Assembly: GCF_058153355.1 (NCBI RefSeq)
Contig: NZ_CM177019.1
Length of the DNA: 64,000 nt
Direction: 5' to 3' (one strand)
A program made the translations under genes and the position numbers. Shown here in pieces: positions 1,369 to 31,118 of this stretch; the stretch's first letter is position 1; the number at the start of each line of letters is the position of its first letter. The notes beneath the pieces were generated by a model that had not been told where the DNA came from, ran no database searches, and saw only the letters and a program-made list of their open reading frames with translations.

Positions 1369-2433
1369 ATGAAAAACGCCACATGCTTAACTGACGATCA
1401 ACGCTGGCAATCTGTCTTAGCCCGCGACCCGAACGCCGACGGCGAATTCGTTTTCGCCGTGCGCACCACGGGTATCTTTTGCCGTCCGTCTTGCCGCGCC
1501 AGACATGCCTTGCGGGAAAATGTCTCCTTCTACGCAAATGCCAGCGAGGCACTCGCCGCCGGATTTCGCCCCTGCAAACGTTGTCAGCCAGACAAAGCCA
1601 ATCCCCGGCAACATCGCCTTGATAAAATTACCCACGCCTGCCGACTTCTGGAACAGGAAACGCCTGTAACGCTGGAAACCTTAGCCGACCAGGTGGCGAT
1701 GAGCCCGTTCCATCTGCATCGGTTGTTTAAAGCGACTACCGGAATGACGCCTAAAGCCTGGCAACAGGCCTGGCGCGCTCGCCGTTTGCGTGAATCGCTG
1801 GCGAAAGGGGAGAGCGTGACGACGTCTATTCTTAACGCCGGATTCCCCGACAGCAGCAGTTACTACCGCAAAGCTGACGAAACGCTGGGCATGACGGCTA
1901 AACAATTCCGTCATGGTGGCGAAAATCTGGCGGTGCGTTACGCGCTGGCTGATTGTGAGCTGGGCCGTTGCCTGGTGGCAGAAAGCGAGCGGGGGATTTG
2001 CGCGATATTGCTGGGCGATGATGACGCGACGCTAATCAGCGAGTTGCAGCAGATGTTTCCCGCTGCCGACAACGCGCCTGCCGATCTGCCGTTTCAGCAA
2101 CATGTGCGTGAAGTGATCGCCAGCCTCAATCAACGCGATACGCCGCTGACGTTACCGCTGGACATTCGCGGCACTGCTTTTCAGCAACAAGTCTGGCAGG
2201 CACTGCGCACGATACCTTGTGGTGAAACCGTCAGTTATCAGCAACTGGCGAACGCCATCGGCAAACCGAAAGCGGTACGGGCCGTTGCCAGCGCCTGTGC
2301 AGCCAACAAGCTCGCTATCGTAATACCCTGTCATCGGGTAGTCCGTGGTGATGGCACACTTTCCGGTTACCGCTGGGGCGTGTCGCGCAAAGCGCAACTG
2401 CTGCGCCGTGAAGCTGAAAATGAGGAGAGGTAA
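1369..2433 (+). CDS. ada: Bifunctional transcriptional regulator / O6-methylguanine-DNA methyltransferase Ada
   Basis: 354-aa ORF; N-terminal Cys cluster (CRPSCRA...CKRCQP), AraC-type HTH region, C-terminal PCHRV methyl-acceptor motif. Confidence 0.93.
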   Translation: MKNATCLTDDQRWQSVLARDPNADGEFVFAVRTTGIFCRPSCRARHALRENVSFYANASEALAAGFRPCKRCQPDKANPRQHRLDKITHACRLLEQETPVTLETLADQVAMSPFHLHRLFKATTGMTPKAWQQAWRARRLRESLAKGESVTTSILNAGFPDSSSYYRKADETLGMTAKQFRHGGENLAVRYALADCELGRCLVAESERGICAILLGDDDATLISELQQMFPAADNAPADLPFQQHVREVIASLNQRDTPLTLPLDIRGTAFQQQVWQALRTIPCGETVSYQQLANAIGKPKAVRAVASACAANKLAIVIPCHRVVRGDGTLSGYRWGVSRKAQLLRREAENEER

Positions 2434-3083
2434 TGTTGGATCTGTTTGCCGATGCTGAACCGTGGCAAGAACCACTGGCGGCTGGAGCGGTGATTTTGCG
2501 CCGTTTTGCTTTTAACGTTGCGGAACAACTGATCCGCGATATTAATGACGTTGCCAGCCAGTCGCCGTTTCGCCAGATGGTCACCCCCGGGGGATATACC
2601 ATGTCGGTGGCAATGACCAACTGTGGGCATCTGGGCTGGACGACCAATCGGCAAGGTTATCTCTATTCGCCCATTGATCCGCAAACAAATAAACCGTGGC
2701 CCGCCATGCCGCAGAGTTTTCATAATTTATGTCAACGTGCGGCGACGGCGGCGGGCTATCCAGATTTCCAGCCAGATGCTTGTCTTATCAACCGCTACGC
2801 TCCTGGCGCGAAACTGTCGCTGCATCAGGATAAAGACGAACCGGATCTGCGCGCGCCGATTGTTTCTGTTTCTCTGGGCTTACCCGCGATTTTTCAATTT
2901 GGTGGCCTGAAACGAAATGATCCGCTCAAACGTTTATTGCTGGAACATGGCGATGTGGTGGTATGGGGCGGTGAATCGCGGCTGTTTTATCACGGCATTC
3001 AACCGTTGAAAGCGGGCTTTCATCCACTCACCGCCGACTGCCGCTACAACCTGACATTCCGTCAGGCAGGTAAAAAAGAATAA
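2433..3083 (+). CDS. alkB: Fe(II)/2-oxoglutarate-dependent DNA/RNA demethylase AlkB
   Basis: 216-aa ORF; start overlaps the ada stop (taATG), the classic ada-alkB operon arrangement; HQDKDE...H motif. Confidence 0.93.
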   Translation: MLDLFADAEPWQEPLAAGAVILRRFAFNVAEQLIRDINDVASQSPFRQMVTPGGYTMSVAMTNCGHLGWTTNRQGYLYSPIDPQTNKPWPAMPQSFHNLCQRAATAAGYPDFQPDACLINRYAPGAKLSLHQDKDEPDLRAPIVSVSLGLPAIFQFGGLKRNDPLKRLLLEHGDVVVWGGESRLFYHGIQPLKAGFHPLTADCRYNLTFRQAGKKE

Positions 3084-3158
3084 AAATAAGAATTATTATT
3101 GCTGTGCGCGCGGAGATGTTTAAACTGCGGGCTGTAATTCATTGTCCGGGTTTTCTGC

Positions 3159-4802
3159 ATGGAACTTCTTGTACTTGTCTGGCGGCAGTATCGCTGGCCA
3201 TTTATCAGTGTGATGGCGCTAAGCCTCGCCAGTGCGGCATTAGGCATTGGCTTAATTGCTTTTATCAATCAGCGCCTTATCGAAATGGCGGATACCAGTC
3301 TGCTGGTATTGCCAGAATTTCTGGGTTTATTGCTGCTGTTGATGGCCGTCACTCTCGGATCGCAACTGGCGCTCACCACTTTGGGGCATCACTTCGTTTA
3401 CCGACTGCGTAGTGAATTTATCAAGCGGATTCTGGATACCCATGTCGAGCGCATTGAACAACTTGGTAGCGCCTCGTTGTTGGCGGGGTTAACCAGCGAT
3501 GTGCGCAATGTCACCATTGCTTTTGTGCGTCTGCCGGAACTGGTGCAGGGGATCATTCTCACTATCGGTTCCGCGGCGTATTTGTGGATGCTATCGGGCA
3601 AAATGTTGCTGGTAACGGCTATCTGGATGGCAGTCACCATCTGGGGTGGTTTTGTGCTGGTGGCGCGGGTGTACAAACATATGGCGACCCTGCGTGAAAC
3701 CGAAGATAAGCTGTACACGGATTTTCAAACCGTACTCGAAGGGCGCAAAGAGCTGACTCTGAACCGTGAACGCGCCGAGTATGTGTTTAACAACCTCTAC
3801 ATTCCTGATGCGCAAGAGTATCGCCATCATATTATCCGCGCAGACACCTTCCATCTTAGTGCTGTGAACTGGTCAAACATCATGATGCTGGGCGCAATCG
3901 GTCTGGTGTTCTGGATGGCGAACAGTCTCGGTTGGGCTGATACCAACGTTGCCGCGACCTATTCGTTGACGCTGTTATTCCTGCGTACGCCGCTGCTTTC
4001 GGCGGTTGGCGCATTACCGACGCTGCTGACGGCGCAGGTGGCGTTTAACAAGCTGAACAAATTCGCACTCGCGCCTTTCAAAGCAGAGTTTCCGCGTCCG
4101 CAGACGTTTCCCAACTGGCAAACGCTGGAGCTGCGCAATGTTACGTTTGCTTATCAGGATAACGCGTTTTCCGTTGGGCCGATTAACCTCACCATTAAAC
4201 GTGGCGAACTGCTGTTTCTGATTGGCGGCAACGGTAGCGGAAAATCAACACTGGCCATGTTGCTGACGGGCTTGTATCAACCACAAAGCGGCGAAATTTT
4301 GCTGGATGGCAAACCTGTCAGCGGCGAACAACCGGAAGATTATCGCAAACTGTTTTCGGCAGTGTTTACCGATGTCTGGTTGTTTGATCAACTGCTGGGG
4401 CCGGAGGGGAAACCTGCTAACCCGCAACTGGTTGAGAAGTGGCTGGCGCAGCTGAAAATGGCTCATAAGCTTGAGTTAAGCAACGGGCGTATTGTTAACC
4501 TGAAGTTATCAAAAGGGCAGAAAAAACGCGTGGCGCTGTTGCTGGCGCTGGCAGAAGAACGCGATATTATCCTGTTGGATGAATGGGCGGCAGATCAGGA
4601 CCCTCACTTCCGCCGTGAGTTTTATCAGGTGCTGCTGCCGCTGATGCAGGAGATGGGTAAAACGATTTTCGCCATCAGTCATGATGATCATTACTTTATC
4701 CACGCCGACCGTCTGCTGGAAATGCGCAACGGGCAACTTAGCGAGCTGAAGGGCGAAGAGCGCGATGCTGCTTCGCGTGATGCCGTTGCCCGGACGGCAT
4801 AA
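3159..4802 (+). CDS. yojI: Fused ABC transporter permease/ATPase (microcin J25 efflux type)
   Basis: 547-aa ORF; N-terminal TM region, Walker [13 protein letters not shown] signature LSKGQKKR, Walker B ILLDE. Confidence 0.88.
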
Positions 4803-5007: not shown

Positions 5008-6666
<1,659 letters not shown>

Positions 6667-6680
6667 TGATGTGGCGTATG

Positions 6681-7132
6681 CTGATAAGACGCGTCAGCGT
6701 CGCATCAGTCAACCGGCTTGGGCGTTAGATGTCGGATGCGGCGTGACCGCCTTATCCGACCTATGGGGTGGAGCACTTCACAGCGGTGTAGGCCTGATAA
6801 GACGCGCCAGCGTCGCATCAGTCAACTGGCTTGGGCGTTAGATGTCGGATGCGGCGTGACCGCCTTATCCGACCTACGGGGTGGAGCACTTCACAGCGGT
6901 GTAGGCCTGATAAGACGCGCCAGCGTCGCATCAGGCAACCGGCTCGGGCATTAGATGTCGGATGCGGCGTGACCGCCTTATCCGACCTACGGGGTGGAGC
7001 ACTTCACAGCGGTGTAGGCCTGATAAGACGCGCCAGCGTCGCATCAGGCAACCGGCTTGGGCGTTAGATGTCGGATGCGGCGTGACCGCCTTATCCGACC
7101 TACGGGGTGCCACACTTCACGGCAGTTTAGCG
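6681..7132. repeat. Tandem array of four ~113-bp REP/BIME units in the mqo-eco intergenic region
   Basis: The motif ctgataagacgcg recurs at 6681, 6794, 6907 and 7020 (period 113 bp); each unit holds two inverted REP-like palindromes (ctgataagacgcgccagcgtcgcatcag and gatgcggcgtgaccgccttatccgacctac). Confidence 0.8.
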
Positions 7133-7615
7133 GACTACCGCGTTGTCAATTTTCTCTTCCGCCTTCCAGATGCGGTATTTCACATCTACATTGTCTGGCG
7201 TATACACCACGATCGGCAGCTTGCTGTTGTAACGCAGCATTCCAGCATCGCCCAGATACGCGGTGACAAATTTCTTCTCTTTCTTGCCATCCGGGCAGGC
7301 CATCATCGTGGAAACCGGCGAGCTAACTTTATCAAAGACGTAATAATCATAGCCCCAGCCTTCCAGCGTTTTGCTTTCCAGCTTCCCGCCGAGACGATGC
7401 AAATTGCAATCGACTTCCAGCGTCTGACCGATTAACAGTTCTACTTTCAGGGTAGATTCATCTTCTTGCGGGGTTAACTGAATCACCTGGCGCTTCATGC
7501 CTTTTTCAGCTTGTGGATAAGGCGCGATTTTTTCCAGTGGCTGGACGCTCTCTGCCGCCCAGGCGGAAGTGGTGGCGAAAGCGGCAAACAATACTGCAGG
7601 TAGAATGGTCTTCAT
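7127..7615 (-). CDS. eco: Ecotin, periplasmic serine protease inhibitor
   Basis: 162-aa product from the internal ATG ([20 protein letters not shown] signal peptide); the longer 169-aa ORF start is less likely. Confidence 0.9.
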
Positions 7616-7874
7616 TTTTTTGCTTTCCTTCTTCATTTATAGGTTTTCACCGATGATGTCGCTGAAGGTTAACATATTCATCAGATTTATTAATTTGCTT
7701 TATGAATAACTTAAAGAACATTCAGACAATTTTACCTGCTCTTTTAGTGTTAAATTCTGACGAGAGAACAAACCAGTAGAAATATCTCTGGTGAATTAAT
7801 CGCTATATAAATATGTTTATAACCATTTGAAATGTGAGCAAAAGCCCGTTTTTGCCACGCTTCCCGCCACTCTT

Positions 7875-20162: not shown

Positions 20163-20222
20163 GAACAAGCCCGATGGTGATGCCATCGGGCCAGACTGAT
20201 GGCAAAGTGCGCTTTGTTTATG

Positions 20223-20256
20223 CCAGATGCGGCGTAAACGCCTTATTCAGCCTACA
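20223..20256. repeat. REP palindrome flanking the IS insertion (ccmH side)
   Basis: gccagatgcggcgtaaacgccttattcagcctac, the REP family seen elsewhere in the window. Confidence 0.55.
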
Positions 20257-20350
20257 AAATCGTGCGAACTCAATACATTGCTCGATCCGCGTAGATACTG
20301 TTATGGCCTGCAAGTTTTTTTCTACCCCGGTTTCCCAGATTGCAGGCATG

Positions 20351-21577
<1,227 letters not shown>

Positions 21578-21622
21578 TGATAAGCGTAGCGCATCAGGCA
21601 GTTTTGCGTTTGTCATCAATAT

Positions 21623-27658: not shown

Positions 27659-28666
27659 ATGAGTCTGGATATCAACCAGATTGCTCTGCACCAGCTTATC
27701 AAGCGTGATGAGCAGAACCTTGAGCTGGTGTTGCGCGATTCATTGCTGGAACCGACGGAAACCGTCGTTGAGATGGTGGCAGAACTGCATCGGGTCTATA
27801 GCGCCAAAAATAAAGCTTACGGCTTGTTTAGCGAAGAGAGTGAACTGGCGCAGACGCTGCGCTTACAGCGTCAGGGTGAAGAGGACTTTCTGGCCTTTAG
27901 CCGCGCGGCAACCGGTCGCCTGCGTGACGAATTAGCGAAATATCCTTTTGCTGACGGTGGCTTCGTGCTGTTTTGTCACTACCGTTATTTAGCTGTCGAA
28001 TATCTGCTGGTGGCGGTTCTGAGCAACCTGAGCAGTATGCGCGTTAACGAAAATCTCGACATCAACCCGACCCATTATCTTGATATCAATCATGCGGATA
28101 TTGTTGCGCGTATTGATTTAACCGAATGGGAAACCAATCCAGAGTCGACCCGGTATCTCACTTTCCTGAAAGGGCGAGTCGGGCGCAAAGTAGCCGATTT
28201 CTTCATGGACTTCCTCGGTGCCAGCGAAGGGTTGAACGCGAAAGCGCAAAACCGCGGATTATTGCAGGCGGTTGATGATTTCACTGCCGAAGCACAACTG
28301 GATAAAGCAGAACGGCAGAACGTGCGTCAGCAGGTCTACAGCTACTGTAATGAGCAATTGCAGGCGGGTGAAGAGATCGAGCTTGAATCGCTGTCGAAAG
28401 AGCTGGCGGGCGTCAGCGAAGTGAGCTTCACGGAATTTGCGGCTGAAAAAGGCTACGAACTTGAAGAGAGCTTCCCGGCAGACCGTAGCACGTTGCGTCA
28501 GTTGACGAAGTTTGCCGGTAGCGGTGGTGGCTTGACCATTAACTTTGATGCGATGCTGTTAGGTGAGCGCATTTTCTGGGACCCGGCGACCGATACCCTG
28601 ACCATTAAAGGCACGCCGCCGAACTTGCGCGATCAATTGCAGCGCCGGACGTCTGGCGGCAATTAA
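27659..28666 (+). CDS. yejK: Nucleoid-associated protein NdpA (YejK)
   Basis: 335-aa ORF starting [19 protein letters not shown]...; length and synteny. Confidence 0.9.
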
Positions 28667-28681: not shown

Positions 28682-28716
28682 GAATGCCAGATGCGGAGTG
28701 AACGCCTTATCTGGCC
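28682..28716. repeat. REP palindrome downstream of yejK, immediately 5' of the group II intron
   Basis: gaatgccagatgcggagtgaacgccttatctggcc, an inverted repeat gccagatg...tctggc. Confidence 0.55.
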
Positions 28717-29319
28717 TACAAGTGCGACAAGAAGTCGTCCAACATATTGTTTTGATAAATTATTTATATAAAACCAACTATTCCATTAGTTGTAGCCTAC
28801 TGAGGCAGGCAAAGCTGGTAACGGCTCTGTCTGAAGCCCTTGGGACAATGTAGCTTAGCAAATATTGCTTCAGTTAATCGTGAGAAAACCTGATCGCTAC
28901 AAGCATCATGCGGCGAGAGCGCTAGGCTGGGCGGTATGGTTAACATAGTGAACTGTCGTTAAACGTCGTAACAGAGAACGAGCCAAAGATGCTGATAGGC
29001 TTGCACCAAAAGGTAAGGGGTAAGGCTATTCCTGTTCGTAGTGGGAATACATGGACAATAACTCCCCCGGCGGATAGACAGAACCTAACCCGTTCTTTGT
29101 ATGTTGGTCGGAACTTGGTAAGCCCGAATTCTCGCCCTAGTGGCAGGGGCACCGTAAGGCAAACTGATGAGAATGCGGGTAAAGGAGGATGGAAAAAGCG
29201 AAAGCCGGACTGTAATCGTGCGGATAGAGGTTCAATATTTGCCTTAACGGGAAACCGTGCTGACTTCCATCTGGTCTTTAATTGCGAAACATCTGCGAAG
29301 GTTTCTTTGGATGACATGT

Positions 29320-30999
29320 ATGAAAATTACATCTAACAATGTAACTGCGGTCATCAACGGAAAAGGTTGGCATTCCATTAACTGGAAGAAATGCCATCAA
29401 CACGTTAAAACCATACAGACAAGAATCGCAAAGGCGGCATGTAACCAGCAATGGCGTACAGTCGGTAGATTGCAACGATTGCTGGTTCGCTCATTCAGCG
29501 CCAGAGCACTGGCGGTGAAACGAGTTACGGAAAATAGCGGGCGTAAAACCCCCGGAGTTGATGGTCAAATCTGGAGTACTCCAGAATCAAAATGGGAAGC
29601 GATATTCAAACTCAGGCGAAAAGGGTACAAGCCCCTACCGCTAAAAAGAGTTTTTATACCCAAATCTAATGGCAAGAAAAGACCATTAGGAATCCCCGTC
29701 ATGCTTGACAGGGCAATGCAGGCCCTGCATCTGCTGGGATTGGAGCCTGTATCGGAAACTAATGCAGATCACAACAGTTATGGTTTCAGACCAGCGCGAT
29801 GTACGGCTGACGCCATTCAACAGGTATGTAATATGTATAGTTCCCGGAACGCCTCGAAATGGGTTCTGGAAGGCGATATTAAAGGATGCTTTGAACACAT
29901 TAGCCACGAGTGGCTGCTTGAAAATATTCCTATGGACAAGCAAATACTCCGTAATTGGTTGAAAGCCGGGATCATCGAAAAAAGCATATTCAGCAAAACT
30001 CTCTCGGGTACACCCCAGGGAGGAATCATATCTCCAGTTCTGGCAAACATGGCCCTGGATGGACTGGAAAGACTGCTGCAAAATCGCTTTGGTCCGAAAC
30101 GCTCAAAAACATTCAGGAAACATCAGGTTCACTTCGTCCGGTATGCTGATGATTTCATCATTTCCGGAAAGTCGAAAGAACTTCTGGAGGAGAATGTTCT
30201 TCCGTTGGTGAAATCATTTCTTGCAGAAAGAGGGCTGACGTTATCCGAAGAGAAAACGGTCATCACTCACATTACTGACGGATTTGATTTCCTTGGGCAG
30301 CACGTCCGACGCTTCGGTAGAAAACTCATAATCAGACCAGCCAAGAAAAACGTTAAACAATTTCTTAGCAAGATCAGAGAGACTATTGAAGGTAACCGAA
30401 CGGTTCCTGCATGGGTGCTAATAAATCTGCTTAATCCAATCATCACCGGGTGGGCAAACTATCACCAACATGTAGCATCGGCAGAGACATTTAACTATGT
30501 CGACAACCAAATCTGGCGCAAAATCTGGCAGTGGTGCAGAAGGAGACATCCCGGCAAAGGCCGGAGATGGATCTTCCGAAAGTACCACACGACAATAAAA
30601 ATGTGTCATGGTCGATTTTATGGAGTCGATCCGGAGGGTAGGAAATATGTTCTGTCCCGGGCCAGCGACATCCATATTAATCGCTATATAAAAATAAAGG
30701 GAACGGCAAATCCATATGATCCCGAGTGGGAAACATACTTCGAAAGAAGGCTGGACTACTCATGGAAGAAATCCCAACAGGGGCAGAAAAGGATTCTCGC
30801 TATATGGAAAAGGCAAGGATCGCGCTGCCCTTTATGTGAGCAACCGATTAATCGCGATACAGGATGGAATGTTCATCATTTGCTCAAGAAATCTCTTGGC
30901 GGTAGCGATGATGTGAGCAATTTAGTCCTACTCCATCCCAACTGCCATCGACAACTACATAGTAATGACGCTGGTCTCCCACAAGGTGGAGGCTTATAA
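29320..30999 (+). CDS. Group II intron-encoded protein: reverse transcriptase / maturase / HNH endonuclease
   Basis: RT motifs (KKRPLGIPVMLDRAMQ, FVRYADDFIISG), a maturase X region, and a C-terminal HNH (CPLCEQPI...WNVHHLLKKSLGGSDDVSNLVLLHPNCHRQLH). Start codon uncertain: ATG at 29257, 29311 or 29320. Confidence 0.88.
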   Translation: MKITSNNVTAVINGKGWHSINWKKCHQHVKTIQTRIAKAACNQQWRTVGRLQRLLVRSFSARALAVKRVTENSGRKTPGVDGQIWSTPESKWEAIFKLRRKGYKPLPLKRVFIPKSNGKKRPLGIPVMLDRAMQALHLLGLEPVSETNADHNSYGFRPARCTADAIQQVCNMYSSRNASKWVLEGDIKGCFEHISHEWLLENIPMDKQILRNWLKAGIIEKSIFSKTLSGTPQGGIISPVLANMALDGLERLLQNRFGPKRSKTFRKHQVHFVRYADDFIISGKSKELLEENVLPLVKSFLAERGLTLSEEKTVITHITDGFDFLGQHVRRFGRKLIIRPAKKNVKQFLSKIRETIEGNRTVPAWVLINLLNPIITGWANYHQHVASAETFNYVDNQIWRKIWQWCRRRHPGKGRRWIFRKYHTTIKMCHGRFYGVDPEGRKYVLSRASDIHINRYIKIKGTANPYDPEWETYFERRLDYSWKKSQQGQKRILAIWKRQGSRCPLCEQPINRDTGWNVHHLLKKSLGGSDDVSNLVLLHPNCHRQLHSNDAGLPQGGGL

Positions 31000-31005
31000 A
31001 GGCTT

Positions 31006-31039
31006 GAGCGGTATGCGGGGAAACTCGCACGTACCGTTC
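31006..31039 (+). ncRNA. Group II intron domain V (catalytic hairpin)
   Basis: GAGCGGTATGCGGGGAAACTCGCACGTACCGTTC: a 34-nt hairpin with the AGC triad, 2-nt bulge and GAAA tetraloop typical of domain V, directly after the intron ORF stop. Confidence 0.75.
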
Positions 31040-31118
31040 TTAGGGGGCGGCGAGACAGTAATGAATCGCTGCTACCCGACAAAATAGCAATACCGTAATC
31101 AGGCATAATTTGCAGATA

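Follow-up and report, generated by a model that had tools for sequence, protein, structure and literature searches.

The 64,000-nucleotide stretch of DNA analysed here (contig NZ_CM177019.1 of RefSeq assembly GCF_058153355.1; referred to as the window) carries between the convergent genes mqo and eco a tandem array of repetitive extragenic palindromes (REPs), which is identified with high confidence as the Escherichia coli eco-mqo BIME-2 (bacterial interspersed mosaic element), i.e. as the orthologue of the K-12 element REP161 in a four-unit (eight-REP) allele, together with the terminator/stabiliser and DNA gyrase roles proposed for it. The array is already known: it belongs to a textbook family, and its K-12 orthologue bears a name and has been studied experimentally (the K-12 eco-mqo locus is named REP161 in a supplementary table of bioRxiv 10.64898/2026.03.23.713779). 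REP161 (NC_000913.3, approximately 2,304,394-2,305,107) shares with the array the locus, the flanking genes, the 113-bp unit and the linkers; its first unit shows the same degenerate start and its last unit the same ending as in the window. BIME-2 elements are defined by z2 and y motifs, a short linker and multiple tandem copies, the number of which is strain-variable (Ton-Hoang et al. 2012, PMC3333891). Their linker between REP heads, termed S, has no IHF site, and the flanking motifs between REP tails are of type s, l or r. The present array is composed of Y and Z2 REPs in alternating orientation with a bubble in the stem, its conserved copies stand in tandem, their number differs between strains, and its placement is extragenic, in the 460-bp gap between the stop codons of two convergent genes. 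An earlier note on this DNA, made from the sequence alone, had proposed a BIME-type REP array between mqo and eco; the Y/Z2 composition and the Pfam-confirmed flanking genes bear this out.

A tandem array with a period of 113, 3.9 copies, 96% matches, 0% indels and a score of 810 was detected at 6681-7120 by Tandem Repeats Finder, and a gapless repeat search returned three copies of a 224-nt repeat at a spacing of exactly 113 bp (97% and 94% identity). In the REP-based register, in which each unit starts at the foot of a Z2 REP, the four units occupy positions 6675-6787, 6788-6900, 6901-7013 and 7014-7126; their pairwise identities amount to 102-110 of 113 positions, a similarity far above chance, and the previously claimed four near-identical 113-bp tandem units are thereby recovered. 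The array end proposed earlier (7132) has to be corrected, as it overshoots by about six bases into eco: the last unit ends at 7126, one base before the eco stop codon (7127-7129), with unit similarity fading from approximately 7107 onwards. The array, whose eight REPs take up nearly the whole gap, is composed as follows:

6675-7126, no strand assigned: whole BIME-2 array, four units of 113 bp (Tandem Repeats Finder, repeat family, Rfam naRNA4)
6675-6710, minus strand: Z2 REP 1, with degenerate tail and foot (GTATGC versus GTAGGCC); RNA fold of −16.3 and −16.6 kcal/mol on the two strands
6731-6764, plus strand: Y REP 1, tail CTAT; consensus match with four substitutions
6788-6823, minus strand: Z2 REP 2, with an exact IS621 target ATCAGGCCTAC at 6788-6798 (minus strand)
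6844-6877, plus strand: Y REP 2; RNA fold of −19.1/−20.2 kcal/mol (z −3.7/−4.4), DNA fold of −10.8/−11.9 kcal/mol
6901-6936, minus strand: Z2 REP 3, perfect Z2 consensus, IS621 target at 6901-6911; RNA fold of −21.9/−22.3 kcal/mol
6957-6990, plus strand: Y REP 3, consensus match
7014-7049, minus strand: Z2 REP 4, perfect Z2 consensus, IS621 target at 7014-7024 (minus strand)
7070-7103, plus strand: Y REP 4, followed by a terminal linker remnant (7104-7126) that abuts the eco stop codon

Each unit consists of an inverted Z2 REP, a head-to-head linker of about 20 nt, a Y REP and a 23-nt tail-to-tail linker (GGGGTGGAGCACTTCACAGCGGT); the linkers lack an IHF consensus. The orientation alternates strictly, with every Z2 REP on the minus and every Y REP on the plus strand. 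Consensus matching identified four Y REPs with three to four substitutions, three Z2 REPs with none or one, and in addition one degenerate Z2; as an independent check, the Rfam model built on the Y+Z2 pairs of REP325 also matches all four units. The GTAG or CTAC tetranucleotide is present at seven of the eight REPs, and the Y copies belong to the GTCGGAT...ATCCGAC variant. Single REPs were predicted to fold with a 7-bp stem that a 2x2 internal loop separates from a second stem of 4-5 bp, closed by a tetraloop; on either strand the energies lie between −16 and −22 kcal/mol for RNA and between −11 and −13 kcal/mol for DNA. The RNA fold of the whole gap was far more stable than that of shuffled sequence on both strands (z = −5.2 for plus, −6.6 for minus). 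Consensus matching and folds thus agree with the earlier view of two REP palindromes in opposite orientation per unit. Within the locus the stems are near-invariant (29 aligned units); the one variable pair of the Y stem is compensated (T..A) in three units and uncompensated (C..A) in six.

The genes on both sides and the open reading frames (ORFs) that overlap the array are the following:

5020-6666, plus strand: mqo coding sequence (malate:quinone oxidoreductase), TAA stop codon at 6664-6666; Pfam Mqo PF06039, E=5.7e-240
7127-7636, minus strand: eco coding sequence (ecotin); Pfam Ecotin PF03974, E=8.9e-51
6656-6841, 6718-6954, 6831-7067, 6962-7435 and 7057-7266, plus strand: overlapping ORFs from the ORF list
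6931-7113, minus strand: overlapping ORF from the ORF list

The two genes are convergent; mqo is annotated as such in all homologous RefSeq loci inspected, and eco appears in RefSeq either as a 489-bp (7127-7615) or as a 510-bp form. No intrinsic terminator, i.e. a hairpin followed by a T-run, was found in 6667-7126 on either strand: the REP hairpins are not followed by a T-run. An identity as intrinsic (Rho-independent) terminator, which combines a GC-rich hairpin with a U-tract, was consequently rejected.

To follow the strain-variable number of units, 5,426 complete E. coli genomes were searched with a query consisting of the two flanks alone; mqo and eco lie less than 850 bp apart in 5,366 of these genomes. 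Unit counts were taken from 60 records at even steps down the match ranking, where gap lengths follow the formula 149 + n x 113 bp: one unit was present in 38 records, two in one, three in one, four in two, five in three, six in ten and seven in four, and one record was interrupted by an insertion sequence (IS). The array thus ranges from one to seven units in the 59 sampled genomes with an uninterrupted gap, the single unit being the commonest and the four units of the window a minority allele; the copy-number variation that the earlier note had considered likely is therefore real. Seventeen arrays, including that of the window, were read base by base. In the 16 with at least two units the period is exactly 113 bp, save for one unit with a 16-bp deletion. 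The degenerate start of the first unit is constant in the arrays read, and so is the length of the tail, which runs for 107 nt from the last Z2 anchor to eco (CFSAN018748: 105 nt); the array therefore changes by whole internal units. Besides the window, four-unit alleles are found in the complete genomes of AR144.2, AMSCJX03 and, with its IS removed, 2017-02-2CC. Even among K-12 derivatives the number differs: DH5a (NZ_CP076470.1) and one record labelled 'K-12' carry seven units, MG1655, RR1 and J53 six, and the difference between DH5a and MG1655 is either a unit gained within the K-12 laboratory lineage or an assembly difference. Small internal deletions are rare and occurred in two genomes of the 60-record sample: in ACN002 the loss of 65 bp has brought the arm of the leader hairpin (GCCGGGGATG) into direct contact with a Y REP head, revealing this arm as Y-REP-like, and in 2023CK-01482 16 bp are missing within a Y REP. 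A search for the internal junction of the tail-to-tail linker located it in 1,987 of the 5,426 genomes (37%), exclusively on chromosomes and at 1-11 places each; since this fraction equals that of sampled genomes with at least two units, the linker appears specific to the mqo-eco locus, and arrays may contain up to about 12 units. The array is thus a length-polymorphic marker with one to seven or more units. None of the complete E. coli genomes reaches 99% identity to the locus, and those nearest to it are mosaic. A comparison of the window with EC42405 (NZ_CP043414.1) revealed 97.4% identity for the part from yojI to mqo and 99.7% for that from eco to nap, with 100% in napA; the switch in identity falls inside the array (approximately 6673-6907), which consequently coincides with a recombination (mosaic) boundary.

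The gyrase, RNA and turnover roles of the array are proposed here by analogy with what has been published for the K-12 orthologue and for the sister array REP325. At the DNA level, the Y REPs would represent preferred, transcription-independent sites of DNA gyrase binding and cleavage. For the K-12 eco>-<mqo BIME-2 (654 bp), 11, 7, 2 and 5 gyrase cleavage sites, mapped to the single nucleotide, are given in four data columns (Sutormin et al. 2019, PMC6379681, supplementary Table DS3), and the supplement of the same paper tabulates for it the entry 'Espeli, Boccard 1997: 6 cuts'. Gyrase cuts Y REPs more than Z2 REPs, at loops and bubbles, and cleavage signals become stronger when rifampicin blocks transcription (Sutormin et al. 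2019, PMC6379681). The gyrase site suggested by the earlier note is therefore plausible by orthology, the K-12 array having mapped in vivo cleavage (PMC6379681, supplementary Table DS3). At the RNA level, the transcripts of mqo (plus strand) and eco (minus strand) would enter a series of hairpins of about −16 to −22 kcal/mol without U-tracts, which are expected to attenuate transcription, partly via Rho, and to block 3'-to-5' exonucleases; the array would act as a two-way terminator and stabiliser in the 3' untranslated regions (UTRs) that insulates mqo and eco from each other. As the transcripts of both genes read into the array, this is most likely its function at the RNA level. Attenuation and protection of the upstream mRNA have been shown directly for REP325, with partial Rho dependence of the full array only, and expression is higher in convergent gene pairs that are separated by REPs than in pairs without them (bioRxiv 10.64898/2026.03.23.713779). 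Units would be gained and lost via slippage or unequal recombination between the 113-bp repeats, possibly aided by the REP-associated Y1 transposase (TnpA-REP).

Several points weigh against this functional interpretation. Its steps are carried over to the strain and the allele of the window from other arrays, and the gyrase data refer to a six-unit K-12 array with slightly different Y loops (GTAACC versus GTGACC here). A global effect of terminal REPs on mRNA half-life was not found, the context dependence is large, and REP325 fragments of two to four hairpins lack Rho dependence (bioRxiv 10.64898/2026.03.23.713779). Furthermore, the extra units are evidently dispensable, because the commonest allele has a single unit (38 of the 60 sampled records).

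The side of the array next to mqo differs from that of most other strains by a small deletion:

6667-6674, plus strand: deletion scar, with TGATGTG joined to GCGTATG at the junction

Compared with K-12, N96, RIVM_C036569, Z1323HEC0399 and EC42405, the window lacks 28 bases between two direct repeats of GATGTG; the 18-bp-stem hairpin that follows the mqo stop codon was lost with them. All top 15 matches to the locus query span 249 bp, not 221 bp. Among the strains whose gaps were read, strain 48 and CFSAN018748 share the deletion of the window and lack the hairpin, which is present in perfect form directly past the mqo stop codon in the other 14. In RefSeq strains bearing it, the intact hairpin reads TGATGTGCCACATCCGGCATGGTATGCCGGATGTGGCGTATG and folds with −28 to −30 kcal/mol; the remnant left by the deletion does not fold (−0.3 to −1.7 kcal/mol). 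The K-12 hairpin (2305063-2305108; 18-bp stem, −33.4 kcal/mol) lies within REP161 and carries the entry bidirectional terminator #365, eco:mqo (bioRxiv 10.64898/2026.03.23.713779). The exact deletion junction recurs in only two of the 5,426 complete genomes, strain 48 (three units) and CFSAN018748 (one unit), and the units of both differ from those of the window. Judged from these sequences, the allele appears to be real and rare, and the deletion may have arisen more than once. As a result of the missing hairpin, the array is the only structured element left between mqo and eco. The stem of Z2 REP 1 now begins 14 nt past the mqo stop codon, inside the 15-nt range reported: a REP at no more than 15 nt from a stop codon stalls terminating ribosomes, according to Liang, Rudd & Deutscher 2015 as cited in PMC12306157. 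From this it might be supposed that the array serves as the sole mqo-eco insulator, that Mqo output is altered via REP-induced stalling and that the expansion to four units could be compensatory, a speculative proposal that is rather unlikely to hold as a whole. If it were true, the strain would show under natural conditions whether two-way termination can be achieved by a BIME-2 array alone; the loss of the adjacent terminator hairpin represents a small natural experiment on REP arrays terminating convergent transcription.

Among the alternative explanations, an identity as IHF-binding BIME-1 (RIB/RIP) or as protein-coding DNA is practically negligible in probability. IHF binding had been put forward in the earlier note, and ORFs of 60-157 amino acids overlap the array. 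However, the IHF consensus WATCAANNNNTTR has no match in 6667-7126 (four elsewhere in the window, no more than expected by chance), and IHF sites are a trait of BIME-1 with its long L linker, not of BIME-2 (PMC3333891), so that this suggestion is to be withdrawn; the BIME-1 identity is ruled out by the presence of Z2 instead of Z1, by the short head-to-head linker and by the tandem repetition. The chain of overlapping spurious ORFs noted before exists, but it is a mechanical by-product of the repeat: three of the plus-strand ORFs (6718, 6831, 7057) begin at the equivalent TTG of different units, each in a new frame because 113 (3 x 37 + 2) is no multiple of three. Given this shift of frame with each unit and the lack of any annotated coding sequence in the mqo-eco gap of the 15 RefSeq records inspected, the coding interpretation was rejected. 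The model RF02564 (naRNA4) of Rfam raises the further question of whether each unit encodes a nucleoid-associated small RNA of the naRNA4 type, which would arise by processing of the eco 3' region and would condense the chromosome together with HU. Three units exceed its gathering score of 59.5 (75.3, 73.9 and 65.1 bits) and the fourth falls just under it (58.1 bits), all on the minus, i.e. eco-sense, strand, and DNA homologous to REP325 has been proposed to be able to share the role of REP325 (Qian et al. 2015, PMC4550694). Nevertheless, such genes are improbable here. The naRNA4 model represents the 77-nt Y+Z2 unit of REP325, another BIME-2 (PMC4550694), i.e. a plain Y+Z2 pair that any BIME-2 unit will match; the linker in the window is 7 nt longer, the locus is mqo-eco and not REP325, and a scan of the gap revealed no sigma-70-like promoter. 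In addition, according to a 2026 preprint of groups including the original laboratory, deletion or overexpression of REP325/naRNA4 leaves the nucleoid volume unchanged, and neither a stable HU-DNA-RNA ternary complex nor REP-REP contacts were found (bioRxiv 10.64898/2026.03.23.713779). On sequence grounds, the matches are best regarded as shared, paralogous REP building blocks and not as naRNA4 genes. In sum, the array is neither a BIME-1 nor an intrinsic terminator, neither a set of naRNA4 genes nor coding; its importance beyond correct annotation is small, and the label should read BIME-2/REP (REP161 orthologue), not ORFs and not the three naRNA4 genes that an automatic Rfam pass would call.

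The number of four copies could, in principle, also result from collapse or expansion of the repeat during assembly, as short reads may be put together wrongly over a tandem repeat of about 450 bp. Yet each of the four units carries private substitutions (see the identities given above), four-unit alleles also occur in the three further genomes named above, and two independent complete genomes contain precisely the same unusual junction of the 28-bp deletion; an assembly artefact is therefore very unlikely. A more serious, though still doubtful, alternative regards the array as selfish or neutral REPIN-like DNA that has colonised the mqo-eco gap and is resized by replication slippage or by the REP-associated tyrosine transposase (RAYT/TnpA-REP), without a host function that would need the extra units. 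The wide range of unit numbers (one to seven in the sample, perhaps up to about 12), the predominance of the single-unit allele, the difference between MG1655 and DH5a and the occurrence of small deletions inside REPs are in line with it; moreover, cleavage and recombination of BIMEs by TnpA-REP occur in vitro, and models for their amplification have been put forward (PMC3333891). A RAYT gene is absent from the 64-kb window. On the other hand, at least one Z2+Y unit is kept at this position in all 17 arrays read, and the K-12 array is cleaved by gyrase in vivo (PMC6379681, supplement). The selfish or neutral view is compatible with, and not exclusive of, the identification as a BIME-2 with terminator/stabiliser and gyrase roles.

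The array is also a target of an IS110-family element that resides in the same window:

20293-21572, minus strand: resident IS621-family (IS110) element of 1,280 bp with a transposase coding sequence at 20400-21380; Pfam DEDD_Tnp_IS110 and Transposase_20

The resident element shares 99.6% nucleotide identity with a copy in 2017-02-2CC that is annotated as 'IS110-like element IS621 family transposase', and it is inserted between ATCAGGCCT and AC of a Z1 REP. The bridge RNA, whose target loop reads ATCGGGCCT...GTAG, is encoded at the left end of the element. The natural target of IS621 has been described as ATCAGGCCTAC, with ATCGGGCCTAC being encoded by the loop (Durrant et al. 2024, PMC11208160); a mismatch is tolerated at position 4, other mismatches poorly (PMC11208160). 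Exactly three sites in the window match this 11-nt target with its CT core (ATCAGGCCTAC or ATCGGGCCTAC), compared with 0.02 expected, and all three are the complete Z2 REPs of the array (6788, 6901 and 7014, minus strand). The Y REPs read ATCCGACCTAC (or ...CTAT), two positions off the resident guide, and are not targets; nor is the degenerate first Z2 (6675-6710). The earlier proposal that each REP is a potential IS110 target thus holds for the three complete Z2 REPs and fails for the four Y REPs and the first Z2. The idea of IS110 targeting itself is well founded, as IS621 was found within the array in about 31 of the 5,426 genomes. In 29 of these it occupies a Z2 site (query with the junction of the IS right end and the locus-specific linker), and both insertions that were read are situated in the mqo-eco gap between ATCAGGCCT and AC. 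In the two further genomes, a 97%-identical IS621 variant is inserted in a Y REP of the array between ATCCAACCT and AC (23CRST025, NZ_AP045787.1, positions 2245-3523 of the retrieved locus; GPEC1292). Its target loop reads ATCCGACCT instead of the ATCGGGCCT of the resident copy, and the variant represents a naturally re-guided copy that matches the Y REPs of the array, i.e. the other REP type. The array is accordingly a recurrent natural landing site of the programmable recombinase IS621, occupied in about 0.6% of complete genomes. A new insertion at its Z2 sites would have the same orientation as the resident copy at a distance of about 13.5 kb, bracketing the nap-ccm genes. Downstream of ccmH, the resident copy interrupts a BIME-1-like REP pair that consists of a Z1 REP (21571-21599) and a Y REP (20222-20255). 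A group II intron of the window (region 28686-31080; Rfam D1-D4 at 28774-28921, domain V/VI at 31004-31080) encodes reverse transcriptase, maturase and HNH domains in an ORF at 29257-30999; it is located 55 bp downstream of a Y-type REP (28686-28719), just past a yejK-like gene (27659-28666).

In comparison with known systems, the array has in common with BIME-1 (RIB/RIP; Y, L linker, Z1) the inverted REPs and the position at 3' ends of transcription units; BIME-1, in contrast, contains Z1 and is not repeated in tandem but present once, its long conserved linker including an IHF site (PMC3333891), whereas the array is built of Z2 in tandem with a short linker. The natural REP sites of IS621 resemble those of the array in the exact ATCAGGCCTAC with CT core, and copies reside at this very position in other strains; with respect to this element, however, the array is the target and not a part of it. 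REP325 (naRNA1-6, yjdM-yjdN) is likewise a BIME-2 of alternating Y and Z2 tandem units that is transcribed within a 3' UTR. It is located between the tandem genes yjdM and yjdN instead of convergent genes, its Y REPs are of the canonical GCCGGAT...ATCCGGC type, unlike those of the array, and its period is about 100 bp (laid out by eye) versus 113 bp, the head-to-head linker of the array being 7 nt longer; a 113-bp period of REP325 was ruled out by this layout, the linkers being different. As regards the K-12 REP161, MG1655 contains six units in a 714-bp gap, the window four units in a 460-bp gap, and most K-12 units carry the GTAACC loop in place of the GTGACC of the window. REP161 has moreover retained the 18-bp-stem hairpin at the mqo stop codon that the array of the window has lost.

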